This document shows positions 26,787-51,775 of a stretch of 64,000 nt of DNA, piece by piece. The notes under the pieces were generated by a model. It worked only from the letters and a program-made list of their open reading frames with translations, was not told the origin of the DNA and ran no database searches. The stretch is from Candidatus Binataceae bacterium. GTDB lineage: Bacteria > Desulfobacterota > Binatia > Binatales > Binataceae. A program made the position numbers and the translations under genes. Where the stretch lies: NCBI GenBank assembly GCA_050736615.1, contig JBOHWL010000123.1, forward strand, positions 27,384 to 91,383, in the 5' to 3' direction. Each line of letters opens with the position of its first letter. The stretch's first letter is position 1.

Positions 26787-26992
26787 TGTCATTCTGAGAG
26801 TGTGCGAAGATTTTGTTTTTCTGTCATTCCGAGCGCCACCAGCGGGAGCCGCTCCGTGCGGCGAAGCGAGCAGGCGAGTCGGCGAGCTGCGTATGAAACC
26901 GAGGAATCCCGGATCTTTTTGCTTTTCCTGTGTTTTTTCGGGATTCTTCACTCATCTAAACGCACGTCGCAGACTCTGACTCAGAACGCGAC
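26787..26992. repeat. Palindromic MITE-like repeat, copy 2
   Basis: Begins GTCATTCTGAGAGTGTGCGAAGATTTTGTTTTTCTGTCATTCCGAGC (near-identical to 8991-9040). Core GAGGAATCCCGGATCTTTTTGCTTTTCCTGTGTTTTTTCGGGATTCTTCAC matches 9045-9095. Confidence 0.8.
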
Positions 26993-27323
26993 TCGCCGAC
27001 TCTCCCGCTCTTTTGCGGGGGAGAAAGAGAGGGGGTGCAGGCTTGTGATTTATCAACAGCCTGCTAGAAAGCCCGCTTCGCTTTACCCGCGGACGTAAGG
27101 CGGCTGGCCAAACCCCCTGGCGCTCGTTATGGGCGCCCGCAGACACTTCGGAACTTTCCATCCCTTCGCACAGTTGAAATAGTGCTATAGTTTTCCGCAC
27201 GCGTGCCGCGTCTGTGAGTCCAGCACGCCGAGGCGTTGTGCGCTTCTTCGGAGCCGCGTGCGTCACGGCCAAATTGGCGAATCGATGCATTGGCGCAAAC
27301 CGGAGCAGGAGGCCCGTATCAAG

Positions 27324-28115
27324 ATGTGGCGAAGGATCGCCGTCTTTATCGTGTTGGCGTTAGCCGTTGTGCCTTTAATGAGTTGTCAGAAAGCACAGCC
27401 CAAGGCGGCCTTTGATCCCGCTACGGCGCAGTCCTTCTTCCCGCTCGTGGCAAACGCTACGTGGACTTATCAAATCAAGAGCAAAAGCCAGCGGGCCAAT
27501 TATGTCGTCACCGATCGAGTGCTGGGTGTCAAATACGTGCCGTCGTTGAACGTCACCGGCGAAGTGGTCGAAGAATACTACAATATGAACCGTGGCGGCA
27601 CACGCCCAATCGTGTATGTGACGAAAAACGGTTACCTGACCCGGCTGTCGGGGCTTGACTATAAGAAAAATTCGATTGAGGCGCCGGCCTGGGGCCGTTC
27701 TGAGGACGGCATGTTTCTGCCGCAGCGGTTGACCCCGAACCTGATCTGGAAAAACACAATTTTTCCGTTTGGCCATATGCCGGGATCATTCGATATCAAA
27801 CAGACCCATAGAAGTTACTTCGAAGCCGGCGAGGTGGTGGTGCCGGCGGGTCATTTCTCGAACTGCATCCGTATCGAAACCCAGGCCCAATACGAGGGCG
27901 GCACCTACGCAAAAATGAAGGCCAATATGCGGCTCATCTATAAGGATTGGTACGCGCCGCATGTCGGCCTGATCAAAACGGTGGCGTCGGAGGACCGGCC
28001 AAACGGCCGTGAGATGGAACAGGTCCAACTGCTTCGTTTCAACATTCCCAAAAACCAAGCCGCCGCTGATGGGACTACCGCCGCCGAGACGGATAGCGCG
28101 AAAACGTCACGATAA
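27324..28115 (+). CDS. Hypothetical lipoprotein (paralog 1 of a tandem pair)
   Basis: Signal peptide plus lipobox (AVVPLMSC). Shares long blocks with the next gene (ATWTYQIKSKSQRANYVVTDRVLG / YVPSLNVTGEVVEEYYN / GYLTRLSGL / IEAPAWG / PAGHFSNCIR / YAPHVGLIKT). Confidence 0.6.
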   Translation: MWRRIAVFIVLALAVVPLMSCQKAQPKAAFDPATAQSFFPLVANATWTYQIKSKSQRANYVVTDRVLGVKYVPSLNVTGEVVEEYYNMNRGGTRPIVYVTKNGYLTRLSGLDYKKNSIEAPAWGRSEDGMFLPQRLTPNLIWKNTIFPFGHMPGSFDIKQTHRSYFEAGEVVVPAGHFSNCIRIETQAQYEGGTYAKMKANMRLIYKDWYAPHVGLIKTVASEDRPNGREMEQVQLLRFNIPKNQAAADGTTAAETDSAKTSR

Positions 28116-28260
28116 GGTGAGGGGCCCGGCACTGCGTCTGTCTCCGCAAATCATCTCAAGACGGGCATTGCCGCTCTTTCCGCCGCTACGTTTGAAATGA
28201 TACGGTGCGTCACGGGTTCATCCGGCCTTAACCGTGAATAGAGGAGTCGCGTTGCCGAAG

Positions 28261-29043
28261 ATGTTTAGCAAGACGGTTGTGGCGCTGACAGCCGCGCTTA
28301 TGGCGGTTTCGGTGTGGGCCTGTATGGGCTCGTGGTCGTTCGAACCCTCGGCCAATTTTTTTCCGCTCAAGCCGAATGAAACCTGGAGCTATCGTATCCA
28401 GAGCAAGAGCCAGCGCGCGACTTATGTGATGACCGACCGGGTGGTCGGTTCCGAATATGTGCCCGCGCTCAAATTGACCGGTGAGGTGGTCGAGGAATAC
28501 TACAATTTTGATCGCGCCGGATTACGGCCGGTGGTCTATTATCAGCGGCACGGTTACCTTACGCGGCTGTCGGGCCTGGAGTTCAAGAATCATAAGATCG
28601 AAGCGCCGGCTTGGGGTAAATCACTGGACGCCGGCTTTTTGCCCGACCGCCTGTCGCCCGATATGGCTTGGAAGAACGCGCTGTTTCCATACGGCAAACT
28701 GCCAGGCGCATTTGAAGTAGCGCAAAGCCATAAAACCTATTCCGAGCGGCATGAGGTCGACGTACCGGCGGGCCATTTCCACAACTGTATCCGGGTTGTA
28801 ACCATGGCCGCGTACCAAGGCGGAGCGTATGCGGACCAGAAGCAGCCATTAAAGCTGGCTTATGTCGATTGGTATGCGCCCAACGTCGGGCTGGTGCGGA
28901 CAATTGCCTATCAAGGCGGCCTCAACGGTCCCGAAATGGAGCGGGTTGAACTGATTCGCTTCAATGATGGAAGCAAGCGCGCCGCAGCCACCAAGACGTC
29001 AAAGGCGCCTCCATCCGAATCAATGCAGGCCAAAGCGCGATAA
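28261..29043 (+). CDS. Hypothetical lipoprotein/secreted protein (paralog 2 of the tandem pair)
   Basis: MFSKTVVALTAALMAVSVWAC signal. ETWSYRIQSKSQRATYVMTDRVVG / YVPALKLTGEVVEEYYN / GYLTRLSGL / IEAPAWG / PAGHFHNCIR / YAPNVGLVRT. Confidence 0.6.
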   Translation: MFSKTVVALTAALMAVSVWACMGSWSFEPSANFFPLKPNETWSYRIQSKSQRATYVMTDRVVGSEYVPALKLTGEVVEEYYNFDRAGLRPVVYYQRHGYLTRLSGLEFKNHKIEAPAWGKSLDAGFLPDRLSPDMAWKNALFPYGKLPGAFEVAQSHKTYSERHEVDVPAGHFHNCIRVVTMAAYQGGAYADQKQPLKLAYVDWYAPNVGLVRTIAYQGGLNGPEMERVELIRFNDGSKRAAATKTSKAPPSESMQAKAR

Positions 29044-29065
29044 CCGCCGCGCCTCGCCGCATCTT

Positions 29066-29346
29066 CACCTCTCCCAGCGGAGCAAATAGCCGATGCCGCT
29101 CTTTACCTCTCCTAGTCGGGAGAGGTCGCACGGCGATTTTGCCGCGCGGGTGAGGGGCAATTTGAAAGCATCCGCTGAATCCGCTCCCGCACTTGCCCGC
29201 GACCGTAGACGAGCGCTGCGCGGATATGGCACAGATTGCGCCTACACGGTTCTGCGCTTCTGGAACAACGAAATCATCGGTAATATCGAAGGGATGCTGC
29301 AAAGCATCTTCGACTATCTTTGAGATCTCTCGCCCGCGCCTGGGAG
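29066..29346 (+). pseudogene. DUF559 (very-short-patch-repair endonuclease-like) C-terminal remnant inside a small inverted-repeat-bounded element
   Basis: ORF 29093-29323 ends ...RALRGYGTDCAYTVLRFWNNEIIGNIEGMLQSIFDYL, the DUF559 C-terminal signature, but is only 76 aa. Flanked by CACCTCTCCCAGCGG (29066) and CGCCTGGGAGAGGTA (29332) inverted repeats, with an internal hairpin CCTCTCCTAGTCGGGAGAGG. Confidence 0.55.
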
Positions 29347-29359
29347 AGGTATTGAGACG

Positions 29360-29980
29360 TTAGCCGTTGGGCGGGGCGGGCGGGCTGCTCGTTTCGGACC
29401 CGACTTTATTACCGCGTTTAGGATAAATGACCGCGACCGCGTCAATATAGAAGCCGTTATGACCCGGTTCGCCGATTCGGCGCGTATGCTCCACCGCCCT
29501 GATGTATGAACCCGGATCAGAGTAGCCATTTTCCGAAGTGACCTTGTTCATGGTCTCGTTGGGTGTGGCGCCGTAAAGCAGATGCTTGATGTCCTGATGG
29601 TCGCTATTGAGAATCACCAGTGCGTCGGCGCCGGTTTCGCAGGCTTTGCTGCGCAAGGCGGGCAGCACGTTTTTCGTATTGTCCTTGAGGTCCGCCCAGG
29701 CCTCCACGATCGCAATCTGTTTTACATCTCCCACCGGCATGTGCTCGAGCACCGGCATCGCGCAGTCCGGTCCTTTGGCGGCGTGAATATAGGGAGCCAA
29801 TTGGGTGACATCGACCTGCATCGGGGTCTTGGTCGCGCAACCGTCGATGGATGGACTGAACACCAGGCAGAGCAGGCCAGCCAGCGCCAAGACCCGCGCG
29901 CTGCGTCCCTTAGTGAACGCGCCGAGTGTAACGATGTCGAGCCGGTCAAAAGAATTCGCCACGCGCGTCAAAATCCGCAT
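29360..29980 (-). CDS. Hypothetical lipoprotein
   Basis: Internal start gives MRILTRVANSFDRLDIVTLGAFTKGRSARVLALAGLLCLVFSPSIDGCA, a signal peptide plus lipobox. The N-terminal extension of ORF to 30253 is judged non-coding. Confidence 0.4.
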   Translation of the reverse strand: MRILTRVANSFDRLDIVTLGAFTKGRSARVLALAGLLCLVFSPSIDGCATKTPMQVDVTQLAPYIHAAKGPDCAMPVLEHMPVGDVKQIAIVEAWADLKDNTKNVLPALRSKACETGADALVILNSDHQDIKHLLYGATPNETMNKVTSENGYSDPGSYIRAVEHTRRIGEPGHNGFYIDAVAVIYPKRGNKVGSETSSPPAPPNG

Positions 29981-30190
29981 TCGGAAGGTCCGACCCTGGC
30001 CGGCTTGCGGATTCGCTCGTAGCACGGAGCCGCGTTTAGAACCGGAAAAATTGCAAGCCATATGTCGCTCCATCGAGAGGCCGTGCGCCTCAGCATAACT
30101 GAAAATCGGCTGGGCGCTAACCTCCGGCATCAGGTTGCGGCGCCGCTCGCGCATATGTTGCGTGTGGACTGGCTGTAGTATGCTTAACCC

Positions 30191-31105: not shown

Positions 31106-31117
31106 GGCGTTTGCACG

Positions 31118-31561: not shown

Positions 31562-31746
31562 CGCATTTCCTCAAATTCTACAACACCACGTGGAAGCGAA
31601 TATGAATTATCCAGCGCGCAGCCACTCAAATGCCAGTAACAAGGGTCTTGAAGGGGCTGCGCGCCATTGCCATCCGTGCGCGCGCTCGCTTCGGCTGGCG
31701 CCTCGCCCGTTCGGTCGGGATGACAAACCTCTGCACAAACCCATAT

Positions 31747-31905
31747 GTCATTCTGAACAGAGTCTGCCATTAGCGTAGCCATAGGCGGAGCGAGCAAACG
31801 AGTCTGCGAGGTGCGTTTGAAGAAGTGAAGAATTCCGGTTAAAAGCCCAAAAAATCGAGAAGATCCGGGATTCTTCGCTGTGCTCAGAATGACAAAATCA
31901 CTTCT
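31747..31905. repeat. Palindromic MITE-like repeat, copy 3 (opposite orientation to copy 1)
   Basis: GTCATTCTGAAC...GAAGAATTCCGG...CCGGGATTCTTCGCTGTGCTCAGAATGAC followed by AAAATCACTTCTTGTGCAGAGCTTCCC. The left arm is the reverse complement of 9101-9170. Confidence 0.8.
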
Positions 31906-31977
31906 TGTGCAGAGCTTCCCTAGTGTGGCGTCTATAAAATATCAGTGACAAATGCCGACGGATGGATTCCCTTTTCT

Positions 31978-33135: not shown

Positions 33136-33220
33136 TGTTTGCCTCCGCCGCGATGCTGGCCGGGATTTTCTTGATTCAAGTCTGAGTGGCGACGGGCGTG
33201 CGTGCAACCGCGAATGAAAA

Positions 33221-33649: not shown

Positions 33650-33833
33650 GGCACATCTTCTCCGCCAGATTAGCTCTCATTACTTTACGGAGCCGCGCCC
33701 GCGGTCGAAAGCGTTGCGAGCTTCATGGCGATGACTGCATGGATGTTGACTCGCAACCGTATATATGTTGATTCAGAATGGATTGAGCACTGAAATCCCG
33801 CGGCCACGACATTACAACCGAGCGGAGGTTTTT

Positions 33834-34643
33834 ATGTTGAAGCACCTTCAAGAAATCCCGGAGTTCGGCAAACGGATAGACTTTGGCCGGACCGCCTCCG
33901 ACTATGGACGATTTCGCGCAGGCTATCCGGACGAGCTTTATCGCCGGCTCGAAATTTTCGGCGCCGGTGTGCGCGGCCAGCGAATGCTCGATGTGGCGTG
34001 CGGCACCGGCTTTTTGGGACGCGGGTTCGTGCGTCAAGGATGCGCGGTGACGGGCGCGGATATTTCATTCGAGCTGATGCGGCAAGCCGCGCAACTCGAC
34101 GCCGAGGCCGGGGTCGAGATGCGCTATCTGCGAGCGAAGGCGGAAGCGCTGCCATTTTCCGATCGCGTTTTTGACGTCGTCACAGTGGGGCAAGCCTGGC
34201 ATTGGTTTGGCCGGTCTCGCGCAGCGGCCGAGGCGCGCCGCGTGTTGCGCGCGGGCGGATTGTTGGTAATCGCGCATTTCGACTGGATTCCGATCCCCGG
34301 GAACGTGGTCGAAGCGACCGAGCGTCTGATTGAGAAACATAATCCGCAATGGAAGCTTGGTGGCGGACTCGGGATTCATCCGCAATGGCCGCGCGATGCC
34401 GCGATTGCCGGTTTCGGCGAAATCGAGACGTTTTCCTTCGACGTGGCGGTGCGGTATTCCCATGAGGCGTGGCGCGGGCGGATTCGCGCCAGCGCTGGCG
34501 TCGCGGCGGCGCTCAGCGCGGAACGGGTGGCGAACTTTGATTGCGAACTTGCCGCGCTTTTGCGCGAGCGGTTTCCACAGGAGCCGATGGGCGTGCCGCA
34601 TCGCACCTTCGCGACGGTCGCCCGCTCCCCGCGTAATTTCTGA
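33834..34643 (+). CDS. Class I SAM-dependent methyltransferase
   Basis: MLDVACGTGFLGRGF is SAM motif I. RBS GGAGGT lies upstream of the ATG at 33834. Confidence 0.75.
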   Translation: MLKHLQEIPEFGKRIDFGRTASDYGRFRAGYPDELYRRLEIFGAGVRGQRMLDVACGTGFLGRGFVRQGCAVTGADISFELMRQAAQLDAEAGVEMRYLRAKAEALPFSDRVFDVVTVGQAWHWFGRSRAAAEARRVLRAGGLLVIAHFDWIPIPGNVVEATERLIEKHNPQWKLGGGLGIHPQWPRDAAIAGFGEIETFSFDVAVRYSHEAWRGRIRASAGVAAALSAERVANFDCELAALLRERFPQEPMGVPHRTFATVARSPRNF

Positions 34644-34754: not shown

Positions 34755-35189
34755 TCAGCTCTTTCCGAAGACTTGGGACCGTTTGAATTGGCGAGCCTTC
34801 TCCCAAGCGAGACTCAGTTCCTTCTTCAGAAAATCAACTCGGTCGGGGACCGGGACAGACATCACTTTAGATAGCTGAACCGGGCGCCGGCACATCAGAT
34901 CTGGAGGAATTACGCGAGTTTCAGAGTCGCACGTAGCCGTATAAGCGAACGAAATAAAAAAAATCATCGGCTCTTCATCTTTCTGCCTCTGGAAAACCGC
35001 AATTTGCACCTGCTGAAAAAAGCCTTGTTCAGGTTCCTCCCGAGCGAACCACACGGGCTCGTTATGGTATCTAACCACGTATTGCCGCTCTTCAGATTCG
35101 CCCCCAAACTCGGCGACCGCCCCATCAAGGAAGGGGCTCAGAGACGGCGACTCAATCGGTCCATCGTATCCCAGCATCGTTGCGCTCAT
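34755..35189 (-). CDS. Hypothetical protein, downstream partner of the ART-like ORF (candidate antitoxin/immunity)
   Basis: Start ATG 35189 overlaps the upstream ORF's stop in an ATGA arrangement (translational coupling). Low-GC islet. No recognisable family. Confidence 0.4.
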   Translation of the reverse strand: MSATMLGYDGPIESPSLSPFLDGAVAEFGGESEERQYVVRYHNEPVWFAREEPEQGFFQQVQIAVFQRQKDEEPMIFFISFAYTATCDSETRVIPPDLMCRRPVQLSKVMSVPVPDRVDFLKKELSLAWEKARQFKRSQVFGKS

Positions 35190-35530
35190 GGTTCTCGGAT
35201 AGAAAGCCACTTGGATTCATTCGGCAAGATCGTGACTGCGTTAGTGGTATAGGACTCGGGTGCCCCTCCTCTCCTTATGACATTTCCATAAGGCCCGACA
35301 ACCGGGCTCGCCCGAAATGGTACAGACAGCCCGGCTGGAGGAGGATTGTCAGGAATCTCAAATGCGATTTCGACTGGTTTACTTATGATCCCAAGCGCGT
35401 TCGCGGCAGCGGCACCAGTTGCATAGAGTTCGCTGCTAAGGTAAACGCGGCCGGAAGTTCCGGGATTTATAATGCCCGTGCAGATAATACCTTGTGCAGC
35501 TTGGCGAGATGTATAGTGATAAAGAGGCAT
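35186..35530 (-). CDS. Small protein resembling the C-terminal ADP-ribosyltransferase-fold lobe of Tpt1/KptA (H-x-T ... R-x-Y-L-S-S), candidate toxin
   Basis: PLYHYTSRQAAQGIICTGIINPGTSGRVYLSSELYATGAAAANALGIISKPVEI compared with KptA (recalled from memory) [48 protein letters not shown]. Low-GC islet. An AT-rich upstream region is followed by an ORF of only 114-124 aa. Confidence 0.4.
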   Translation of the reverse strand: MPLYHYTSRQAAQGIICTGIINPGTSGRVYLSSELYATGAAAANALGIISKPVEIAFEIPDNPPPAGLSVPFRASPVVGPYGNVIRRGGAPESYTTNAVTILPNESKWLSIREP

Positions 35531-35695
35531 GGAGTCTTGTACTGCAACGGATTTACGCATTGCAACTCGTTTTATTGTAGCCGATTCTATCTAGTAAGAA
35601 TAAGGCGGAAATCAATTTTCGGCCTTGAGCGTCACCTGATTGCTAAGCAGAGTGTAAATTTCCGGCGCTTTGTCTCCCGAAAACCCTCGTGTCGC

Positions 35696-35838
35696 GCCAG
35701 CGCGGGCGTCGCGGCGGCTCTCAGTGCGGAGCGGGTGGCGAAATTCTATCGCGAACTCGCCGCGTTTTTGCGGGAGCGGTTTACGAACCGCTGGACGTGC
35801 CACATCGCACGTTTGCGACCGTCGCTCGCTCATCACGC
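35696..35838 (+). pseudogene. Diverged relic copy of the 3' end of the upstream SAM methyltransferase gene (about 85% identity to 34492-34634)
   Basis: Direct DNA alignment by eye. Encodes ...AGVAAALSAERVAKFYRELAAFLRERF... and ...PHRTFATVARS... in shifted frames. No intact N-terminal part. Confidence 0.6.
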
Positions 35839-35985
35839 TGGGTGTTCGACCGGACGTTGCCTCCCGCCTTGCCGGGGTCGGGAAATAGGTAATCGTACGA
35901 GCCCGTGGCATTTGGGAATTTCTGGGTCGATATCTATACTCTCAGATACAGAATCAACATTAATTGGAAGAAAGCGGATAATCCT

Positions 35986-36240
35986 TTGGCTCTAAACATC
36001 AAGCATCCCGAAGCGGACCGGCTCGCACGTTCGCTAGCTGAAAAGACGGGAGAAACCATAACCGAAACCGTGATTAAGGCACTGCGGGAGCGGCTTGCAC
36101 GCGAAGAGGGAAGGACAATTTTGCCAAACGTTAAGGACGATCTACTCGCGATTGGCATGCGCTGCGCCGCTTTACCAGACATCGAAACTCGCTCCGCTGA
36201 CGAGATTGTCGGTTATGATGCTCACGGGTTGCCCGGCTGA
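35986..36240 (+). CDS. vapB: Type II TA system antitoxin, VapB/FitA-like (ribbon-helix-helix)
   Basis: (M)[41 protein letters not shown] is a classic VapB-family N-terminus. TTG start assumed at 35986. Stop overlaps the vapC start. Confidence 0.7.
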
Positions 36241-36243
36241 CAG

Positions 36244-36633
36244 ATGGTTATAGACATCTCCGCTCTGTTGGCGATTCTGTTTGGTGAGCCTGAGAGAGAA
36301 GCCTTCGCCGGTGCTATTGCAGCCGATTCAAAGAGGCTCATCTCGGCGGTCTCAGCGCGTGAGACCGCCATCGTTGTGGAGGCGCGTAAAGGGTCAGCGG
36401 GGAGCCGCGAATTGGATCTGCTGCTTCACAGGGCGCGGGTCAGTATCGTAGCGTTTGCAGAGGGGCAGATGGAAATCGCACGCGACGCCTGGAGGCGGTT
36501 TGGCAAGGGCAATCATCCGGCGAGCCTTAATTTCGGTGATTGTTTTTCATATGCACTATCCAGGAGTTCGGGCGAACCGCTGCTCTTCAAGGGCGAGGAT
36601 TTTTCCAAAACCGATGTATCAAGCGTGCTCTAG
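36244..36633 (+). CDS. vapC: Type II TA system toxin VapC (PIN domain)
   Basis: MVIDISALLAILFGEPE..., ...SAVSARETAIVV..., ...NFGDCFSYALS are PIN-domain acidic residues. 4-bp spacing from vapB. Confidence 0.8.
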   Translation: MVIDISALLAILFGEPEREAFAGAIAADSKRLISAVSARETAIVVEARKGSAGSRELDLLLHRARVSIVAFAEGQMEIARDAWRRFGKGNHPASLNFGDCFSYALSRSSGEPLLFKGEDFSKTDVSSVL

Positions 36634-42228: not shown

Positions 42229-42294
42229 TCAACGCTGGCGCTCGCGAAACCACAAGCTTTTGCAATATCCAGAAAATAAGCGGCCGCTCCAGGA

Positions 42295-42590
42295 TGACTT
42301 TCGTCATTTCGAGCGGGCTGCCGAAGATCCTTCGCTGCGCTCGGAGCGTGTGAATTTTTTTGTGCCATCCTGAGCCGGCGAGCAGCGTGAGCGACGTCGA
42401 AGGACCTCGCGCGGCGCTCCTTGCGTATTCAGCGAGCATTCGCTATTTGACGCGTGCGGGAGCACGCGAGGTCCTTCGCTTCGCTCAGGGATGACGGAAA
42501 AAAGTGCACGCACTGACCGCTTCGCGATTTTCCGCGGAGGTCCGAAAATTTCACACATTTTCGGATGACCGAAGGGAATTGTGCAGGCGT
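42295..42590. repeat. Composite/degenerate member of the palindromic repeat family with a nested second palindrome (CCATCCTGAGC...GCTCAGGGATGAC)
   Basis: GTCATTTCGAGCGGGCTGCCGAAGATCCTTCGCTGCGCTCGGAGCG plus CGCGAGGTCCTTCG arms mirrored around 42420-42470. Ends with ...GAATTGTGCAGGCGTTCCC, similar to the CTTGTGCAGAGCTTCC tail of other copies. Confidence 0.6.
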
Positions 42591-42629
42591 TCCCAAGCCT
42601 AACCGCTGCTCAAGAAGGTACCCGCCGCG

Positions 42630-45535: not shown

Positions 45536-45694
45536 AATTTGTCGCGGCCGTGCCATTTAATCCGCGCTCGAGGTTCAAGCGAAATGCGCAAGCGCTATTC
45601 TAACCGCTTAATCCGTCGAGCAGAACGGAAAGCGGTTGCGCGCGCACGATGGTTACAAGCCTAATTGTTCCGATAACGGTGGCCAACGATCGGC

Positions 45695-45990: not shown

Positions 45991-46010
45991 GCCGGTGCCC
46001 ACCGGAACGC

Positions 46011-47531
46011 TCACGCGTGAATCCGTGGCAGGCGTCCGCTCCATGGCGCCGCCTGCTCGATTTGAGTTGCGAGCTGCAAGAGCAGATCCTCACGTCCGTA
46101 CGCGCCAACGAATTGCACGCCCACTGGCAGGCCATCGGCGGTCATATGCAAGGGCAGCGAGATGGCGGGCTGGCCGGTGATATTCCATGGACCGGTGAAG
46201 GGAATGAGTTGATTAATGCGCCGGCCGATGTTCCACACGTTTTCGTCGTCATGACGCTTGTAGGTTCCGAGCAACGGTGGCGGCGCGGACAGGGTCGGCG
46301 TCACTAAAATGTCGAAGCCGCGCGTCTTCATCTTTAACGCGGCTCGCGGACTCGCCTGCTCGGCTTCGCTGCGCTCCGCCTGGCACCACCAGTCCGCCGC
46401 CGCTCGCGTATACGTGTTCATCCATTCGCAGGTCGCGATGTAATCGGTTGCCGCGATGCGCCGTCCGCGCTCGATCAGCGCCCAGGTCCATTCTTCGAAA
46501 TCATGCGGACCAACCCGCCGTCCCAGCCATTGCTCGGCGAGGTTGACGAAAGCCGCTTCATGACAAGCGATAAGCTTGCCCATATGTGAATCGATGGTGG
46601 GATCGTCGAGGGCGGCGGGGAACGCTGGTTCAACCTGATGTCCCAGTGATTCCAGCAGCTTGGCCGCTTGGATGACCGCGCTGACACATTCATTATGCAG
46701 CGCCGGATGGGCTGATGGCGCGCGCTCCATGAAGCCGATGCGCAGCCGCCCGGGCGCCCGCGTGATTTCGTCGCGATAGGGACGCGACGGCGGCGACGCG
46801 CTGAATGGATCGCCCGGCATGCGGCCGGCGATCACGTCGAAAATCGCGGCGAGGTCGCGCACCGAACGCGTCAACACGCCTTCTTCACACAGGCCATGCC
46901 AGAAATCGCCATAAAGCGGACCTAAAGAAGTGCGCCCGCGCGACGGCTTCATCCCGACCAGGCCGCATTTGCTCGCCGGAATTCTGATCGAGCCACCCGC
47001 GTCATTGCCATGCGCCGCCGGCACCATCATGGCCGCGCCGGCCGCGCCCGCGCCGCCACTGGAACCGCCGGCCGAACGGACCGGATCCCATGGATTGCGC
47101 GTCGCGCCCCACGCGTTGGTCTCGGTCGAAATCGACGCGCCCCATTCGGGCACGGTGGTTTGTCCCAGGATGATAAAGCCGGCTTGACGGAATTTGGCGG
47201 CTATAAAGGACGTGACAGGTGCCGCGAGGCCAGCGTCCTTGAGCGGCTGCCAGCCCCAACTGAAGGGCTCGCCCTCGATACTCTGTATCAGGTCCTTTAA
47301 TAAAAATGGCACACCGCGAAACGGCGCGTTACCGCGTATGGCCGCCCGGGCTTCATCGCGCGCCTTTTCAAAGCGCGGAAAAATGACGCAATTGAGTTGC
47401 GGGTTGAGCCGTTCAATACGTTCAATCGCGGCGTCGACCAGTTCAATCGGCGCGAGCTCTCCGCGCGCGACCAACTCCGCCTGGGCAGTAGCGTCCAGCG
47501 CGGCTAATTCCGACATGCTCGTTGTCTTCAC
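46011..47531 (-). CDS. Amidase (amidase-signature family)
   Basis: GGSSGGAGAAGAAMMVPAAHGNDAGGSIRIPAS is the AS-family signature. 506 aa. Confidence 0.85.
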   Translation of the reverse strand: MKTTSMSELAALDATAQAELVARGELAPIELVDAAIERIERLNPQLNCVIFPRFEKARDEARAAIRGNAPFRGVPFLLKDLIQSIEGEPFSWGWQPLKDAGLAAPVTSFIAAKFRQAGFIILGQTTVPEWGASISTETNAWGATRNPWDPVRSAGGSSGGAGAAGAAMMVPAAHGNDAGGSIRIPASKCGLVGMKPSRGRTSLGPLYGDFWHGLCEEGVLTRSVRDLAAIFDVIAGRMPGDPFSASPPSRPYRDEITRAPGRLRIGFMERAPSAHPALHNECVSAVIQAAKLLESLGHQVEPAFPAALDDPTIDSHMGKLIACHEAAFVNLAEQWLGRRVGPHDFEEWTWALIERGRRIAATDYIATCEWMNTYTRAAADWWCQAERSEAEQASPRAALKMKTRGFDILVTPTLSAPPPLLGTYKRHDDENVWNIGRRINQLIPFTGPWNITGQPAISLPLHMTADGLPVGVQFVGAYGREDLLLQLATQIEQAAPWSGRLPRIHA

Positions 47532-47639
47532 TGGTCAACGCACTCTCAGATTCTTAATTTCTCGCTCCGCTCGGTCATGCGCACGTCGCAGACTCCTTTG
47601 CTCGGCTTCATTTCATTTCGCCTAATGTCGACTCTAAGG

Positions 47640-48515
47640 TTAGATGCGTGCGGTCTCGCTCGGCTCGTCGATGATGCGTGCCTCAATGTGCCCGATCTTT
47701 TCAATTTCGATCCGCACGGTATCTCCCGCCTTGAGCCATTTCGGCGGCTTCATCGCGGCGGCGACACCGCTCGGCGTGCCGGTTGAAACGATCGTGCCGG
47801 GCTCGAGCGTAAACACTGTCGAGAGGGTTTCGATTTGTGCATAACAGTCGAAAATCAGGTACCTGGTGTTGGAATGCTGCCGTTCCTCGCCGTTGACCAG
47901 CGTGCGCAACTCGAGTGCGTGCGGATCGCCAAGCTCGTCCGGCGTGACGATCCAGGGGCCCGTCGGTCCATGCGTGTCCCATGATTTGCCCAGCGTCATG
48001 GTGGTGGCGCGCCGCTGCCAATCGCGCACACTCACATCGTTGACGATCATGAAGCCGGCGATAACCTCATGGGCGCGCTCACGCGGCACATGGCGGCATC
48101 GCCGTCCGATTACGAAACCCAGCTCGCCTTCATAGTCCAGCGAGCTCGACGCGCGCGGCAGATGAATCGGATCGTAGGGGCCGTTGACGCAACTGGACTG
48201 CTTGTTGAAGAACAACGGGAATTGCGGCTTGTCGCGCCCGGTTTCGGCGATATGTTCGGAATAATTGAGGCCGATGGCGAGGAATTCGGGCGGTCGCTTG
48301 ATCGGCGCTTCCAACCTGATTTGATTGAGTGCGAGGCGGTCCCCGCTTTGCCCAACGGCCTTGCGCGCGCGTTCGAGCGCGGCCGCGCCGGAGGCTAAAA
48401 ACGCCGTCATCTCGCGCGGCAACTCCGGTGCCGCCGCCGATAAGTCGACTACCGTCTCACCGTCGATTACGCCGATCCGGCTGATGCCCTGATGATTGAA
48501 TGTGGCCAGTTTCAT
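47640..48515 (-). CDS. Fumarylacetoacetate hydrolase (FAH) family protein
   Basis: MKLATFNHQGISRIGVIDGETVVDL...DYEGELGFVIG...GTPSGV is the FAH fold. Confidence 0.8.
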   Translation of the reverse strand: MKLATFNHQGISRIGVIDGETVVDLSAAAPELPREMTAFLASGAAALERARKAVGQSGDRLALNQIRLEAPIKRPPEFLAIGLNYSEHIAETGRDKPQFPLFFNKQSSCVNGPYDPIHLPRASSSLDYEGELGFVIGRRCRHVPRERAHEVIAGFMIVNDVSVRDWQRRATTMTLGKSWDTHGPTGPWIVTPDELGDPHALELRTLVNGEERQHSNTRYLIFDCYAQIETLSTVFTLEPGTIVSTGTPSGVAAAMKPPKWLKAGDTVRIEIEKIGHIEARIIDEPSETARI

Positions 48516-48705
48516 GCCGAGGCTCCTTGCCTTTGGAAACGCGGCAACTCGCGTTGGATTTCCAACCGCTCAAATCATTACTCGCTTATGCCGATGAAGA
48601 AAAACGCTCGCGCGCCGCGTGACCGGCGGTGCGCCGCGACTCAAGAGCCAATCGGTCGCGGCGCCGCTGGTTAACGCTCTTAGGGAACTTCCGCACAAGC
48701 AAATT

Positions 48706-48830
48706 TGTCATTCTGAACGGAGTCTGCGAAGTGAAGAATCCCGGCAAAAAGCCTGCATAAATAAGAAGATCCGGATTCTTCGCTGCGCTCAGAATGACAT
48801 AATCACCCCTTGTGCAGAGCTTCCTTAGAC
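48706..48830. repeat. Palindromic MITE-like repeat, copy 5 (near-perfect palindrome)
   Basis: GTCATTCTGAACGGAGTCTGCGAAGTGAAGAATCCCGG....CCGGATTCTTCGCTGCGCTCAGAATGAC followed by ATAATCACCCCTTGTGCAGAGCTTCC. Confidence 0.85.
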
Positions 48831-48983
48831 GCCATCAGCGCAAAACTTTCAGCCGCAAATTCCCGCAACGACGGGTGAAGCCGGGCCCCGTGGTTGTGGG
48901 CGTTCGGATGCTAGCGGCATTGACCTCACAGCCGTATGCGCGTGGATTTGACGCGGAGCGCCGGTCAGCCTTTAATGTGACTC

Positions 48984-50390
48984 ATGGCCGGAATTGTTTC
49001 ATACGGATCATACGTGCCCTATCGACGGCTTAAGCGCGCCGCCATTGCCGCCGTGCTCGGCACCTCCGCTGGACGCGGCGAACGCGCCGTCGCCAGTTTC
49101 GACGAGGACAGCGTCTCGATGGCGGTGGAGGCATTGCGCGATGCGCTGAAACACACCCCCGCCGCCGGTATCAATTCGCTGATTTTCGCCACCACGACGC
49201 CGCCTTACGCCGAGAAGCTCAACGCCGCGATGATCGGCGCGGCGGCGTTGTTGCCGGCTGGAATTCGCGCGGCCGACATGACCGGTTCGACGCGCGCCGG
49301 GCTGTCCGCGCTGTTGCAGGCCGCTGACGCCGCCGCCCAAGGCGGGTGCGCCGCGGCGGCGATCGCCGACTGCCGTCTGGGTGCGCCCGAGGGTAAAGCC
49401 GAGCAGAGCGGGGGTGATGGCGCCGCCGCTTTCGTCTGCGGTTCCGACAAGGTCATCGCGGAAATCGAGGCGACCGCCTCCTTCACCCGTGAATATCTCG
49501 ACACCTGGCGGATGCCAAACGAGCGCTTCGGCCACTCGTGGGAGGAGCGTTTTGCCCTCACGCAGGCCTATCAGCCGCTGTTTTCCAAAGTGATCGAGGA
49601 GGTCCTGGGCAAAGCCAAGCTCAAGCCCAATGACCTCAGCAAAGTGATACTGGATGCACCCAACCAGCGCGCCGCCGACGAGTTTATCCGCGCGCTCAAG
49701 CTTGAACCGGCCAAAGTCGCCGACTCTTTGGCCTTGACCGTGGGCCAGACGGGCGCCGCCCATGCGAGCCTGATGCTGACCGCGGTGCTACCTGCGGCCA
49801 AGCCCGGCGATCGCATCCTGGTGGCGACCGTCGCCGACGGTGCCGACGCCCTGCTCTTGCGGATGACACCGGCGGTGGCGAGCTTCAAGCCGGTTCATTC
49901 GGTTGGCCGCATGATCGAATCTAAGGGTGAAGTTTCCTACGGCAACTATCTCAAGTGGCGCGAGATTCTGCCGACCGAACCGCCGCGCCGGCCGGATCCC
50001 GAGCGGCCGGCCGGGCCGCCGATGTTGCGCGCGGAAAAATGGAAATTCGGCTTTATCGGTTCGCGCTGCACCGCCTGCGGCACGCCGCAACTACCGCCGC
50101 AGCGCGTTTGCGTCAAATGCCGCGCGCGCGATCAGATGGAGCCGTACCCGTTCGCCGATCGCGCCGCCCGCGTCGCGACCTATGCCATCGATCGCCTGGC
50201 CTATTCATTGAACCCGCCGACCATTAATGTAGTGATAGACTTCGAGGGTGGCGGGCGTTTTTTGTGTGAAATGACCGATTGCGATCCCGGCAAGGTCGCC
50301 ATCGGCGATGGAGTCGAGATGACGTTCAGGCGCCTGTTTACCGCTGACGGCGTCCACAACTATTTTTGGAAAGCGCGCCCCAAGCGTTAG
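48984..50390 (+). CDS. Fusion of HMG-CoA-synthase-like (thiolase-fold) domain and DUF35 (zinc-ribbon plus OB-fold) domain
   Basis: N-terminal MAGIVSYGSYVPYRRL is an HMGCS-like start. The C-terminus carries CTACGTPQLPPQRVCVKC (zinc-ribbon), then an OB-fold. In archaea and some bacteria DUF35 scaffolds thiolase/HMGCS. Confidence 0.65.
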   Translation: MAGIVSYGSYVPYRRLKRAAIAAVLGTSAGRGERAVASFDEDSVSMAVEALRDALKHTPAAGINSLIFATTTPPYAEKLNAAMIGAAALLPAGIRAADMTGSTRAGLSALLQAADAAAQGGCAAAAIADCRLGAPEGKAEQSGGDGAAAFVCGSDKVIAEIEATASFTREYLDTWRMPNERFGHSWEERFALTQAYQPLFSKVIEEVLGKAKLKPNDLSKVILDAPNQRAADEFIRALKLEPAKVADSLALTVGQTGAAHASLMLTAVLPAAKPGDRILVATVADGADALLLRMTPAVASFKPVHSVGRMIESKGEVSYGNYLKWREILPTEPPRRPDPERPAGPPMLRAEKWKFGFIGSRCTACGTPQLPPQRVCVKCRARDQMEPYPFADRAARVATYAIDRLAYSLNPPTINVVIDFEGGGRFLCEMTDCDPGKVAIGDGVEMTFRRLFTADGVHNYFWKARPKR

Positions 50391-50420
50391 CCGGGGACGG
50401 AACTTCGAGGAGGTATTTAG

Positions 50421-51605
50421 ATGGCAAGCCGTGGAATCAAGGACCGCGTCGCGATCGTCGGCATGAGCTGCACCAAATTCGGCGAGCGTTGGGATAAAAG
50501 CGCGGACGACCTCCTGGTCGAAGCCGCCTACGACTGCTACGCTTCGGCCGGCGTCGATCCCAACGATATCGACGCTTATTGGCTCGGCACGATGGGTTCG
50601 GGAGTTTCCGGTCTGACGCTTTCGGAACCGCTCAAGATTCAATACAAGCCGGTCACGCGCGTCGAGAACATGTGTGCGACGGGCTCGGAGGCCCTGCGTC
50701 AAGCCTGTTACGCGGTGGCCTCGGGCGCCTTCGACATCGTGATGGCGATCGGGGTCGAGAAGCTCAAGGATTCAGGTTTCTCGGGCCTCGTGATGACCAA
50801 TCCGCCCAACGATGGCACGCCCGCCAGCATGACGCCGCCGGCCTTGTTCTCGCTGCTCGCGCCCGCCTATTTCAAGAAGTACGGACTGGACCCCGAGAAA
50901 GGCAAGGACGTGCTGTCGCGCATCGCCTGGAAAAACCATAAGAATGGCGCGCTCAATCCCAAGGCGCAATTCCAGAAGGAAGTGCCCCTCGAGACCATCA
51001 GGAATTCGCCCAAAATCGCTGACCCGCTCGGTATCATGGACTGCTCCGGGGTGTCCGACGGCGCCGCCGCGGCGATCGTGGTGCGCGCGGAGGATGCGCA
51101 CAAATACTGCGCCAATCCGATTTATATCAAGGCGCTTTCATTCGTGGCTGGCCCGGCGGAAGGACCACTTAGCCAGGAGTACGACTTCACCACGTTTCCC
51201 GAAGTGGTCGCCACCGCCAAGGACGCCTATCGTCAGGCCGGGATCACCAACCCGCGCGAGCAATTCAGCCTGGCCGAAGTGCACGACTGCTTCACCCCGA
51301 CCGAGTTGGTGCTTTATGAAGACCTGGGTTTCAGCCAGCGCGGCACCGCATGGCAGGATGTGCTCGACGGGTTCTTCGAGCTCGAGGGCAAGCTGCCGGT
51401 CAATCCCGACGGCGGGCTCAAGTCCTTCGGTCATCCGATTGGCGCCTCGGGCTTGCGCATGATGTACGAGAATTGGCTGCAGTTGCGCGGCGAAGCGGGA
51501 CCTCGGCAGATCAAGCATCCCAAGCTCGGATTGACCCATAATCTGGGCGGGCAGCCGGGCCGCTGCGTGAGCTTCGTGTCGGTCGTGGGCAGCCAGATGG
51601 GCTAG
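50421..51605 (+). CDS. Thiolase-domain protein (SCP-x/archaeal-type acetoacetyl-CoA thiolase-like)
   Basis: VAIVGMSCTKFGE, NMCATGSEAL (nucleophilic Cys), and a C-terminal GHPIGASG motif. RBS GAGGAGG upstream. Confidence 0.8.
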   Translation: MASRGIKDRVAIVGMSCTKFGERWDKSADDLLVEAAYDCYASAGVDPNDIDAYWLGTMGSGVSGLTLSEPLKIQYKPVTRVENMCATGSEALRQACYAVASGAFDIVMAIGVEKLKDSGFSGLVMTNPPNDGTPASMTPPALFSLLAPAYFKKYGLDPEKGKDVLSRIAWKNHKNGALNPKAQFQKEVPLETIRNSPKIADPLGIMDCSGVSDGAAAAIVVRAEDAHKYCANPIYIKALSFVAGPAEGPLSQEYDFTTFPEVVATAKDAYRQAGITNPREQFSLAEVHDCFTPTELVLYEDLGFSQRGTAWQDVLDGFFELEGKLPVNPDGGLKSFGHPIGASGLRMMYENWLQLRGEAGPRQIKHPKLGLTHNLGGQPGRCVSFVSVVGSQMG

Positions 51606-51654
51606 CGGAGCCGCGCTGCCCGGCTTGCTAGGAAGCTCTGTGCGGACAGACCAT

Positions 51655-51775
51655 GCTGTCATTCTGAGCGGTAGCGAAGAATCCCGGATCTTTTTGCCTT
51701 TTCAAGGCATTTCCCCGGGATTCTTCACTTCGCAGACTCCGTTCAGAATGACCAATGGGTTTGTGCAGGGTCCGC
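51655..51775. repeat. Palindromic MITE-like repeat, copy 6
   Basis: GTCATTCTGAGCGGTAGCGAAGAATCCCGGATCTTTTTGCCTTTTCAAGGCATTTCCCCGGGATTCTTCACTTCGCAGACTCCGTTCAGAATGAC followed by CAATGGGTTTGTGCAGGG. Confidence 0.8.

Follow-up and report, generated by a model that had tools for sequence, protein, structure and literature searches.

Repeat copies in the window

Seven copies of a palindromic repeat (c1 to c7) are dispersed over the window, by which we mean the whole 64,000-nt stretch of DNA analysed. All of them are intergenic, and several lie within operons, including c1 between DUF503 and rbfA and c7 between the aminotransferase and prephenate dehydrogenase genes. The first-pass annotation had proposed at least seven intergenic palindromic miniature repeats in both orientations; all seven are present and fold into long hairpins, and c1 and c3 (89% over 92 nt) as well as c5 and c6 (89% over 62 nt) are reverse complements of each other. 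Copies c3 and c5 have both inner and outer parts in common (79–91%). An ORF that had been reported as spurious at 9007–9288 exists. The tail motif TTGTGCAGAGCTTCC, also noted earlier, is real and forms one arm of an outer inverted repeat (IR), so the true element boundaries lie further out than those first assigned. The copies and related modules are as follows.

c1, 8969–9193, plus strand: follows the DUF503 stop codon and precedes rbfA; the parts in order are TTAG, a degenerate outer arm, an extra A-like unit (8991–9016), the A unit (9026–9050), the central hairpin GAGGAATCCCGG...CGGGATTCTTC, an insertion of a 54-nt module, the B terminus GTTCAGAATGAC (to 9172), a second degenerate outer arm and TTAG (9190–9193).
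c2, 26763–27067, plus strand: outer-IR-like CGATGCTCTGCCCAAG (26763–26778), extra A-like unit at 26788, A unit (26823–26921) split by a ~60-nt insert that replaces its mini-hairpin, central hairpin, decayed right half, CTAG (27064–27067).
c3, 31723–31923, minus strand: A to B order on the minus strand; perfect outer IR GGAAGCTCTGCACAAG (31904–31919, minus-strand reading) followed by CTAG (31920–31923), left outer arm decayed; same 54-nt module as in c1, with the direct repeat GCAGACTC on its flanks.
c4, 42284–42594, no strand assigned: composite of divergent ATCCT/AGGAT-type units, namely GTCATTTCGAGCGGG and GCCATCCTGAGC...GCTCAGGGATGAC with a long GAAGGACCTCGCG stem; outer-IR-like TTGTGCAGGCGTTCC at 42580–42594.
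c5, 48680–48828, minus strand: full element, the best preserved of the copies; TTAG (48680–48683), outer IR (48684–48699), 7-nt spacer, B unit (48707–48740), loop, A unit ending at 48798, 10-nt spacer, outer IR (48809–48824), TTAG (48825–48828).
c6, 51628–51776, plus strand: starts 23 nt past the thiolase stop codon; CTAG (51628–51631), outer IR GAAGCTCTGTGCGG, A unit (51658–51683), central hairpin, B terminus ending at 51752, decayed right outer arm TTTGTGCAGGGTCCGC.
c7, 61254–61338, plus strand: decayed remnant between the aminotransferase stop codon and the prephenate dehydrogenase gene; CTAG, GGAAAGCTCCGCACAAT, GTCATTCTTCACCGCGTTCAGGAATGAT, ATCAAAGTTTCC, CTGG.
Amidase module, 46337–46395, minus strand: unit-related, in frame in the amidase gene, carrying GGAGCGCAGCGAAGCC on the minus strand and related to the c2 insert.
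Solo accessory module (GCGCACGTCGCAGACTCCTTTGCTCGGCTTC), 47560–47617, plus strand: between the FAA-hydrolase stop codon and the amidase start.

Three of these fragments are additional to the earlier annotation: the two modules at the foot of the list and a unit terminus at 31710–31721. The accessory module is also inserted in c1, c2 and c3, and the amidase module lies exactly where the protein has 20 aa (QAERSEAEQASPRAALKMKT) more than PDB 3a2p. Self-comparison of the window gave matches to c2 at 91% (D7) and 94% (D16). The motif GTCATTCYGAG, with at most one mismatch, was matched 15 times in the window versus 2.1 times expected from shuffles, and none of 100 shuffles reached 15; three matches (42838, 51525 and 52906) are chance hits inside coding sequence. 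The repeat family is real, with motif enrichment far above chance.

Structure of the hairpin unit

The core of the elements is an inverted pair of 25–34-nt hairpin units with the layout T-GTC-[5-bp stem]-GA-[GCGNAGC mini-hairpin or longer hairpin]-GA-[stem]-C. The termini that had been described as shared among copies do exist, but the two inner ones differ, type A reading GTCATTCYGAGCG.AGCGARGAATC and type B GTCATTCTGAACGGAGTCTGCGAAGTGAAGAATC.

The unit is structured and its stem pairs covary. The Y8/R20 stem pair was T..A in 107 cases and C..G in 20, with no mixed pairs (Fisher p = 1e-23). Across 41 distinct bystander units, 82% of cells were paired versus 72% in shuffles and double-sided changes occurred in 40 cells versus 14.9, values reached by none of 500 shuffles; slid controls gave 0.04–0.14 versus 0.377. 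The mini-hairpin occurs in compensatory variants (GCGNAGC, ACGNAGT and GTGAAAC), and unrelated longer hairpins can take its place. Folded as single-stranded DNA with the outer shell included, c5 paired its outer IR arms and reached −29.3 kcal/mol (z = −5.6), and c6 reached −36.8 kcal/mol (z = −7.0); the inner cores of c3 and c1 folded by themselves with z = −3.2 and −3.3, respectively.

Outer inverted repeats

The shell around the doublet is a 16-bp inverted repeat, the consensus given above for c3, with YTAR tetranucleotides abutting it. This consensus is identical at 12 of 16 positions to the end of E. coli IS5, whose ends were verified as CTAA|GGAAGGTGCGAACAAG...CTTATTCGCACCTTCC|CTAA. YTAR abuts eight of the nine outer-IR ends examined, where 1/64 per end is expected. 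Matching tetranucleotides at both ends were seen in three elements only, c5 (TTAG), c1 (TTAG) and locus L115 (CTAG); as CTAG is its own reverse complement, it cannot distinguish a target duplication from an extended inverted repeat. Locus L118 showed no clean target duplication. The outer IR followed by GTCATT within 7–11 nt was found only in the window, in a near-identical MAG contig (L001, which holds an identical copy of c5), in L115 and in L118. A search for a parent insertion sequence carrying the outer IR found none. Judged by its ends, the shell is that of an IS5-type MITE.

Distribution and mobility

The unit is not local. It is present in Binatota, Acidobacteriota, Cyanobacteriota and Bacteroidota, on cyanobacterial (Calothrix, Planktothrix, Oscillatoria and Nostoc), acidobacterial and Bacteroidota plasmids, and in 113 stretches of IMG/VR viral contigs; on phage contigs, units sit between head and portal genes. 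The A/B asymmetry of the arms is conserved across phyla. Where other genomes carry the inner unit, it nearly always lacks the shell (91 loci, chiefly from Binatota, flanked by TTTTGT|GTCATTC). These distributions make it improbable that the repeats are plain IS5-derived MITEs, with the inner palindrome being the decayed interior of an IS5-group element without a life of its own. The likeness of the outer IR to that of IS5, its YTAR flanks and the joint presence of outer and inner parts in c3 and c5 fit such an origin, but the shell-free loci, the units on plasmids and viral contigs, their covariation and the independent coming and going of single 29-nt units do not.

Empty and filled orthologous sites support mobility of the family. 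The c1 site is empty in a Binatota MAG locus (L148), where ~15 nt separate the DUF503 stop codon from the rbfA start, and the c5 and c6 sites are empty in most of 80 orthologous loci. In relatives, some sites orthologous to c6 hold one unit and the others an intrinsic terminator alone. Between loci L251 and L279, a clean 29-nt indel corresponds to exactly one unit, with no target duplication. The in-frame module of the amidase gene and the units between phage head and portal genes also speak for mobility. The earlier description of a non-autonomous, MITE- or REP-like dispersed palindromic family holds well in view of these empty sites, and the copies have neither coding capacity nor a transposase in the window.

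Hairpins held in place by host selection, as mRNA stabilisers, attenuators, terminators or protein-binding sites, would not be mobile DNA, and their likeness would stem from a shared function or from regulation of ssn genes. The positions right after stop codons within operons and the strong predicted folds are in line with this, and effects on transcripts are known for REP, NIME and Correia elements (PMC3733652). We nevertheless regard it as unlikely: presence differs at orthologous sites, one module has inserted in frame into a coding gene, and orientation is unbiased with respect to transcription (29 sense and 20 antisense at viral loci; 11 and 16 at Binatota loci). The sequence is T-rich before and A-rich after the palindrome, the reverse of an intrinsic terminator, and therefore gives no U tract; the copies lack a terminator-like T tract, and the only terminator-like site within them is in c4 (42336–42350). 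The terminator role proposed at first is accordingly weak. The small-RNA scaffold proposed with it finds no support either, as no Rfam family matches, orientation is unbiased and the RNA form is not bound by SsnA (PMC11893778).

Relationship to Ssn nucleases

So-called Ssn-related motifs (SRM) lie on either side of genes that encode small GIY-YIG ssDNA endonucleases, the Ssn family (Chenal et al. 2025, Nat Commun 16:2388, PMC11893778). SsnA, described as an ssDNA restriction enzyme and not a transposase, binds the NTS/dRS3 hairpin of Neisseria only as ssDNA and cuts a few nt upstream of it, RNA and dsDNA not being substrates (PMC11893778).

Outside the window, the 25-nt unit forms the perfect 31–32-bp terminal inverted repeats (TIRs) of elements 420 bp in length with a gene for a GIY-YIG nuclease of ~100 aa. 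The ~89-bp doublets align to the first 52 nt and last 39 nt of this element and are internal-deletion derivatives of it. In 11 of 11 distinct contexts an inverted unit was located at the GIY-YIG stop codon or at most ~200 nt downstream, and in 10 of 11 a unit lay 81–104 nt upstream of the conserved KTYHVY motif of the gene, which adjoins RNase E/G in 6 of 11. The nucleases of the 420-bp elements are 46% identical to the product of a gonococcal gene sitting among dRS3/NTS repeats. Homologues in Planktothrix, Spirosoma, Azospirillum, Aeromonas, S. meliloti and N. gonorrhoeae are each flanked by their own GTCA-type hairpins, which in N. gonorrhoeae are dRS3/NTS. The homology between the element nuclease and the gonococcal SsnA counterpart makes the units equivalents of the Ssn-related motifs described by Chenal et al. 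(2025). The predicted Ssn substrate hairpin of the window copies is GTCATTCTGAGCGNAGCGAAGAATC.

The published degenerate SRM pattern found 0 sites among the window units and missed the TIRs of the ssn elements as well. Following the unit, the window and Binatus subfamily reads CCCGGATCTT, versus TCTCTG in the fetched ssn elements, among which none with the window-type subterminus was seen. No ssn-like gene, IS5-like or other transposase, or RAYT was found in the window, nor any ssn-like gene or transposase in 1.2 Mb of Binatota and related loci; for this genome both enzyme links are therefore sequence analogies.

Origin of the repeats

Taken together, we put a probability of about 0.6 on the window repeats being two-layer, non-coding, non-autonomous repeats with an Ssn-type hairpin doublet as core and an IS5-like MITE as shell. 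The hairpin unit is a member of a pan-bacterial superfamily that includes Neisseria NTS/dRS3 and the Ssn-related motifs. An Ssn-type nuclease with its gene elsewhere in the genome would recognise the hairpins of the window units, and this enzyme, or repair of its cuts, may spread them. In this lineage the doublet sits between the 16-bp IS5-like inverted repeats flanked by YTAR, and an IS5-group DDE transposase acting in trans could copy the whole ~150-bp composite as a MITE. Both are candidates, by analogy, for the mobilising enzyme of the window repeats. If true, long hairpins would be placed in the intergenic spacers of operons, and ssDNA cut sites could affect recombination or DNA uptake. 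The repeats are of a recently described kind, the window form being a divergent variant missed by the published search motif.

An IS200/IS605 TnpA or a RAYT had been suggested as the cognate enzyme. With a RAYT, the units would be classical REP hairpins and the doublets REPINs, copied by a single-copy RAYT (HUH Y1 transposase) elsewhere, with the IS5-like arms incidental. The layout would suit this: an imperfect palindrome of ~25 nt occurs in inverted doublets and as solo units, clusters lie in intergenic spacers, and a unit inserts without target duplication; genuine REPs can have GC-GNA-GC tips, and class-3 Y1-associated hairpins are built alike, with a stem, a tandem GA, a 2-bp stem and a small loop (Table S1 of PMC6006769). 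We find this improbable, however, because the 5' GT[AG]G tag is absent, no Y1 gene adjoins units in ~200 loci, and the sole Y1 gene found (L023) is flanked by a different repeat, GTGGCGCAGGCTTCC... Moreover, the unit is not in the catalogue of manually identified REPs, the same 25-mer spans phyla and phages, unlike lineage-specific REPs, and the REPtron-like bracketing belongs in 11 of 11 contexts to another enzyme family, GIY-YIG/Ssn. It is very improbable that the units are palindrome-associated transposable elements (PATEs) derived from IS200/IS605, that is, left-end and right-end hairpins for TnpA, possibly with TnpB guide-RNA remnants: the subterminal hairpin ends, the differing A and B arms with their conserved asymmetry and the lack of target duplication fit, but the window has no TnpA or TnpB, no transposase recurs among unit-adjacent ORFs, the arms are mutually inverted, unlike the same-orientation ends of IS608 type, and there is no match to the Rfam families based on IS605 ends. 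Neither of the suggested enzymes was found; the evidence points to an IS5-type DDE shell and to Ssn-family GIY-YIG nucleases, the genes of which are bracketed by the same unit.

Comparison with known systems

With IS5-group insertion sequences and MITEs, the window copies have in common a 16-bp terminal IR of the form GGAAG....CAAG and 4-bp YTAR flanks; they differ in having no transposase gene or parent element, in their many decayed ends and in an interior that is an Ssn-type hairpin doublet and not IS5-derived.

The small dispersed repeats (SDR) of cyanobacteria (Elhai et al. 2008, Genome Res 18:1484) are reportedly mobile-looking palindromic inserts of 21–27 nt, found in other repeats and hairpin loops without target duplication. 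Set beside the window unit by description only, they are alike in being palindromic inserts without target duplication, and the unit itself occurs on the cyanobacterial plasmids named above.

REP/REPIN-RAYT systems (REPtrons) and BIMEs are likewise short imperfect palindromes with spaced inverted doublets, intergenic clusters and occasional in-frame intragenic copies, and a REPtron, too, has at a syntenic locus a single-copy gene for a nuclease, with its own repeats on both sides (here with the RNase E/G neighbour in 6 of 11). The present family has no GT[AG]G tag, its enzyme is GIY-YIG and not HUH Y1, and its unit is common to several phyla.

The NIMEs of Neisseria, the RIMEs of rhizobia and Correia/NEMIS elements are also mosaic intergenic repeats in which variable segments lie between short inverted repeats; RIME-like repeats flank the ssn homologue of S. 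meliloti, and dRS3 doublets flank that of the gonococcus. Unit sequence and host phylum differ, and the 26-bp TIRs and TA duplication of Correia elements bear no relation to the window ends.

A parallel is also drawn with NTS/dRS3, SRM and SsnA. The window stem has a tandem-GA internal loop and a GCGNAGC mini-hairpin cap, versus a continuous GC-rich stem; the hosts here are Binatota, Acidobacteriota and phage contigs; and the window copies add the IS5-like shell, with the cognate gene not seen in this genome. Both are oriented hairpin repeats with the frame (C/T)GTCATTC...GAATC(C), NTS reading CGTCATTCCCGCGMAVGCGGGAATCYRG and the window unit TGTCATTCYGAGCGNAGCGARGAATC, and the positions conserved in the window unit are those that matter for SsnA (PMC11893778). 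In both, many repeats per genome occur solo or as inverted pairs in intergenic clusters, and the repeats bracket a GIY-YIG gene for a single-domain protein of ~100 aa.

Repeat copies in the window and their surroundings

The shared motifs of the palindromic repeat family named in the first-pass annotation were read in the sequence at all seven places (copies c1–c7):

8969–9193: c1
26763–27067: c2
31723–31923: c3
42284–42594: c4
48680–48828: c5
51628–51776: c6
61254–61338: c7

With at most one mismatch, GTCATTCYGAG had 15 matches in the window against 2.1 expected from shuffles, none of which reached 15; three of the 15 lie within coding sequence and are chance matches. Repeat detection bore out the claimed presence of both orientations, since c1 is the reverse complement of c3 over 92 nt (89%) and c5 that of c6 over 62 nt (89%), and it gave direct matches of 91–94% between c1 and c2 and 79–91% between c3 and c5. 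All copies are intergenic as described, the spurious ORF said to occupy 9007–9288 exists, and the family is real and non-autonomous.

Pfam annotation placed c1 in the order rimP-nusA-infB-DUF503-c1-rbfA-truB, c5 and c6 in amidase/FAA hydrolase/c5/ChsH2-like/thiolase/c6, and c7 in mutL-miaA-accA-pheA-aminotransferase-c7-prephenate dehydrogenase-cmk; rpsO-pnp is another housekeeping pair around copies. When folded as single-stranded DNA, c5 and c6, each taken as the full element with its shell, form long hairpins (z-scores −5.6 and −7.0, respectively), and the outer arms base-pair in the c5 fold; the inner cores only of c3 and c1 gave −3.2 and −3.3. The window also holds features of other kinds:

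21625–24795 (minus strand) and 14646–16247: NHL-repeat coding repeats, unrelated to the hairpin repeats; the largest direct-repeat families (D1–D3, D8) come from a 1,056-aa NHL-repeat beta-propeller protein
27258–28115 with 28234–29043, and 33765–34643 with 35180–35995: two pairs of adjacent paralogous genes, with direct repeats D4 and D5 (183 nt at 70%; 91 nt at 88%)
36244–36633 and 53816–54205: two PIN-domain proteins, each probably the toxin of a VapBC-type toxin-antitoxin pair

Architecture of the copies

In the full copy c5, the left half consists of TTAG, GGAACTTCCGCACAAG, 7 nt, GTCATTCTGAACGGAGTCTGCGAAGTGAAGAATC (arm B) and CCGG-loop-CCGG, after which the right half continues with GATTCTTCGCTGCGCTCAGAATGAC (arm A, reverse complement), 10 nt, CTTGTGCAGAGCTTCC and TTAG. 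The two inner arms differ and the difference is conserved, arm A being GTCATTCYGAGCG.AGCGARGAATC and arm B having a longer interior. The tail TTGTGCAGAGCTTCC proposed earlier is present; alignment of the copies showed it to be one arm of an outer inverted repeat (IR). Copies c1 and c3 contain a 54-nt accessory module bounded by the 8-nt direct repeat GCAGACTC, c2 has the tip of arm A replaced by an insert of ~60 nt, c4 is a mosaic of divergent units, and c7 is a remnant.

A unit-related module also lies in frame within the amidase gene. This 60-nt module is the reverse complement of the c2 insert, contains the unit core GGAGCGCAGCGAAGCC, and shows in the protein as an insertion of 20 residues, QAERSEAEQASPRAALKMKT, when compared with NylA (PDB 3a2p), the closest homologue of solved structure. 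Partial units, comprising the first ~20–25 nt (GTCATTCTGAG plus ~12 nt), were observed head-to-tail two to four times before complete units in several phyla; repeated nested insertion and slippage at the cut site are both possibilities.

9098–9150 (c1) and 31767–31820 (c3): accessory module AACGCACCTCGCAGACTCGTTTGCTCGCTCCGCC...
26952–26990 (c2): part of the accessory module
47560–47617: accessory module alone, upstream of the amidase gene
46011–47531, minus strand: amidase gene
46337–46395: in-frame module within the amidase gene
8991–9036 and 26788–26833: head-to-tail partial units, found also in the compared loci L192, L205, L304 (2352–2427) and L311 (398–444)

The hairpin unit

Each inner arm is a unit of the form GTC-(5-bp stem)-GA-(GC-GNA-GC)-GA-(stem)-C, and a doublet is an inverted pair of units. 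The free positions Y8 and R20 of our search pattern pair in 127/127 viral matches (T..A 107, C..G 20, mixed 0). Covariation was assessed in 41 distinct bystander units chosen by no search pattern, and it supports six of the seven proposed pairs: 82% of cells were paired versus 72% in shuffles and 40 cells had changed on both sides versus 14.9, values approached by no shuffle and no slid control. The mini-hairpin has the compensatory variants ACGNAGT and GTGAAAC with a free middle base, and is sometimes replaced by unrelated longer hairpins or by a nested second unit. GTC is invariant; T stands at position −1 in 89–91% of units, and C follows the palindrome (position +1) in 99–100%. The units are hairpin-forming inverted repeats of 20–50 nt with oriented, non-palindromic flanks, (C/T)GTC before and C after, two of the features by which Ssn-related motifs (SRMs) are recognized.

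GCGNAGC is a very stable DNA mini-hairpin with a GNA triloop; the d(GCGAAGC) mini-hairpin is reportedly Hirao's. Because such a triloop is typical of DNA, its presence points to recognition of the unit as single-stranded DNA. No orientation bias relative to transcription was found among the units, and only about one-third have an inverted partner within 300 nt.

Roles at the RNA level had been suggested for the copies. As to terminators, one terminator-like site was found inside c4, and none in c5 or c6, the full elements scanned; the flanks are T-rich upstream and A-rich downstream, with no T tract after the hairpin, so that we rejected an intrinsic terminator. The small-RNA idea found no backing, as no Rfam family matched the units: at gathering and E-value thresholds, the window and 14 unit-rich loci yielded tRNAs only. 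A hammerhead-like reading of CUGA...GAA was dismissed because the CUGANGA box is absent. Literature searches for the unit, both as DNA words and as translated peptides, returned nothing relevant.

The IS5-like shell

The copies have terminal IRs like those of an IS5-group element. The 16-bp outer-IR consensus, GGAAGCTCTGCACAAG, agrees at 12/16 positions with the IR of E. coli IS5, an element that reads CTAA-GGAAGGTGCGAACAAG...CTTATTCGCACCTTCC-CTAA beside an annotated IS5 transposase. YTAR abuts eight of the nine outer-IR ends examined. Flanking tetranucleotides match at both ends of c5 (TTAG/TTAG), of c1 (TTAG/TTAG) and of the copy in locus L115 (CTAG/CTAG), and are unmatched in locus L118 and at decayed ends. 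Among the 2.3 Mb scanned, outer-IR-like sites followed by GTCATT within 7–11 nt occurred only in the window, its near-identical MAG contig L001, L115 and L118, and the shell is absent from most Candidatus Binatus copies. The single match to the outer-IR pattern in viral contigs lay in a coding region and was set aside as chance.

Copies c3 and c5 have both shell and core in common, so that the composite was probably copied in one go, and an IS5-group transposase would be the enzyme that copies it. No parent insertion sequence with the same ends and a DDE transposase was found in the window or the 2.3 Mb of loci, and tblastn with the IS5 transposase matched none of the loci.

Filled and empty sites and spread of the unit

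Comparison with orthologous loci revealed both filled and empty sites. The DUF503 stop codon lies ~15 nt from the rbfA start in a Binatota metagenome-assembled genome (MAG), where the window has the ~225-nt c1. The c5 and c6 sites are both empty in most of 80 orthologous loci; in some relatives the c6 site holds a single unit, placed between the stop codon and an intrinsic terminator, and in others only the terminator is present. A clean indel of 29 nt, corresponding exactly to one unit and leaving no duplication, distinguishes two compared loci (L251 and L279). Judged by eye, unit doublets in viral loci showed no consistent target duplication.

The window shares 99.93% identity with a contig of GCA_050736155.1 and 73–79% with Binatota MAG loci. 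In species-representative genomes, the window-type central hairpin pattern was found, among the matches listed, nearly always in Candidatus Binatus/Binataceae MAGs; Terriglobia and Acidiferrales accounted for a few. Among IMG/VR viral contigs, 113 stretches contain the 25-mer GTCATTCYGAGCGNAGCGARGAATC, and many viral-contig units lie between the major head and portal protein genes. Plasmids of Calothrix, Planktothrix, Oscillatoria, Nostoc, Granulicella and Hymenobacter carry the unit as well; a palindromic consensus query gave no plasmid match, and a single-arm query with a lax E-value was needed. A second, unrelated repeat family, CCTCGCCCGTTATTTCACGGGAGG...GGCCGGTAGGTGAGGGT, is common in Binatota intergenic regions, often beside GTCATTC units:

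Loci L131, L182, L193, L264 and other Binatus loci (e.g., L264 around 6620–6700): second Binatota repeat family

Candidate mobilizing enzymes

The earlier label, MITE/REP-like, was right in spirit, but the enzymes proposed with it, IS200/IS605 TnpA and a RAYT, are unsupported. Pfam searches detected no transposase in the ~48 window ORFs, nor was one present among 1,523 ORFs near units, the clustering of which gave phage structural proteins only. With regard to a RAYT, the window contains no Y1 gene, the sole Y1 gene in the sample has another repeat on its flanks, and the foot of all units is GTC(A), not the GT[AG]G of REP/REPIN–RAYT systems. For IS200/IS605, no TnpA ORF adjoins units, and the ORFs near units include no TnpA or TnpB element with the units' end hairpins, as a palindrome-associated element (PATE) of that family would have. 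ORFs bracketed by inverted units in Binatota loci were ordinary host genes (Nmad3, LuxR and acyltransferase).

The Y1 gene, found by a scan for the HUH motif, is a RAYT/TIRYT-like Y1_Tnp gene (1167–1817, minus strand) on a viral contig (L023), bracketed at 1050–1970 by a GTGGCGCAGGCTTCCAGCCTGTGGGGGTTGG... palindromic repeat. It looks like a separate REPtron/TIRtron-type system from the same kind of community, and tblastn of its protein on plasmids returned no relevant taxa.

ssn-like genes bracketed by units

Units bracket a 114-aa ORF on one viral contig that encodes a GIY-YIG protein resembling Ssn, a small GIY-YIG nuclease, and homologues of it numbered 1,288 proteins at E ≤ 1e-5. In 10 of the 11 distinct genomic contexts a unit lies 81–104 nt upstream of the conserved KTYHVY motif, and in all 11 an inverted unit lies at the stop codon or up to ~200 nt downstream. 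Complete ssn-like elements are 420 bp long with perfect 31–32-bp terminal repeats, the stop codon of the ORF lying within the terminal GAATGAC. Nearby doublets of ~89 bp match both ends of the element in alignments (its first 52 nt and its last 39 nt), and are therefore internal-deletion derivatives. RNase E/G adjoins the GIY-YIG gene in 6/11 contexts, which suggests vertical retention of the gene.

The PLSDB homologues from Planktothrix, Spirosoma, Azospirillum, Aeromonas, S. meliloti and N. gonorrhoeae have lineage-specific hairpins of the GTCA type on their flanks. On the Planktothrix plasmid the ssn-like gene is flanked by the same 25-nt unit, on S. meliloti pSymB (L313) by RIME-like repeats, and in N. 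gonorrhoeae (L316) by dRS3 repeats; in Azospirillum (L314) it lies inside the suf operon, between sufB and sufC, flanked by GTCATCCCCGCGAAGGCGGGGATCC doublets. Several PLSDB "plasmid" records of 2–5 Mb (N. gonorrhoeae, Aeromonas caviae) are clearly chromosomes. Many ssn-like proteins are on very short contigs (0.5–2 kb) and identical proteins recur on several contigs, a pattern expected if the repeat-flanked gene breaks short-read assemblies.

The GIY-YIG proteins are 46% identical to the product of the gonococcal gene, an identity that would place them in family cd10448. NCBIfam gave them no name, and the closest solved structure was a weak match only (UPF0213 BH0048). No ssn gene was seen in the window (64 kb) or among related loci totalling 1.2 Mb, and likewise no IS5-group transposase in the window or the related loci examined. 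We infer that this genome encodes a cognate Ssn, and that the units would be spread by Ssn or by the repair of its cuts.

Overall reading and comparison with the Ssn/NTS system

The window copies are best read as IS5-type MITE shells that enclose a divergent, Ssn-related hairpin doublet. A broader reading, which we hold tentatively at a probability of about 0.3, is that the tandem-GA/GCGNAGC units are both a very widespread, unrecognized branch of SRMs and the terminal repeats of a genuine single-stranded DNA hairpin mobile element that is spread by a GIY-YIG nuclease and hitch-hikes in an IS5-type MITE. Under this broader reading, the 420-bp ssn-carrying element would be the master copy, alongside ~90-bp deletion derivatives and 29-nt solo insertions; the nuclease would drive spread across phyla and into phage genomes, and the units of this lineage would hitch-hike a second time inside the MITE. 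If this is true, Ssn would be the nuclease of a new transposon-like class and not only a single-stranded DNA restriction enzyme.

The description of the Ssn/NTS system dates only from 2025, and a single degenerate pattern underlies its catalogue of repeats. That pattern misses a large repeat branch in Binatota, Acidobacteriota, Cyanobacteriota, Bacteroidota and phage contigs, and in MAGs, of which the one named is labelled Verrucomicrobiae; the structure of the branch is defined here as a stem, tandem GA and a GNA-triloop mini-hairpin. The 420-bp elements with perfect terminal repeats, their deletion derivatives and the single-unit indels make the multiplication of NTS-like repeats directly testable. 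The window also exemplifies layered mobile DNA, with an Ssn-type doublet packaged in an IS5-like MITE. In practical terms, such repeats create spurious ORFs, such as 9007–9288, and one module lies in frame as an insertion within an amidase gene.

The N. meningitidis protein SsnA (94 aa; family cd10448) consists of a single GIY-YIG domain. Its target, the dRS3-containing NTS repeat CGTCATTCCCGCGMAVGCGGGAATCYRG, is bound solely as single-stranded DNA, and the cut falls a few nucleotides upstream, with no action on double-stranded DNA or RNA; SsnA also reduces transformation by DNA that contains NTS (Chenal et al. 2025, PMC11893778). The same authors reported thousands of presumed SsnA homologues, most flanked by SRMs, and noted the parallel with REP/RAYT (PMC11893778). 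The published degenerate SRM search sequence, HGTCWYN(0-2)YYVSBRHN(0-5)WNVSBRGN(0-2)RNCYNB, matched the NTS control and had 0 sites in the window, leaving the A unit, the B unit and the terminal repeat of the ssn-like element unmatched. The tandem-GA/GCGNAGC design of the units falls outside the described motif. The frame of NTS, (C/T)GTCATTC...GAATC with a pyrimidine after it, is nevertheless also that of the window unit. For SsnA, binding hinges above all on the C directly after the palindrome, and the three nucleotides upstream of it are the main determinants of cleavage (PMC11893778), and these key positions are exactly those conserved in the units described here.
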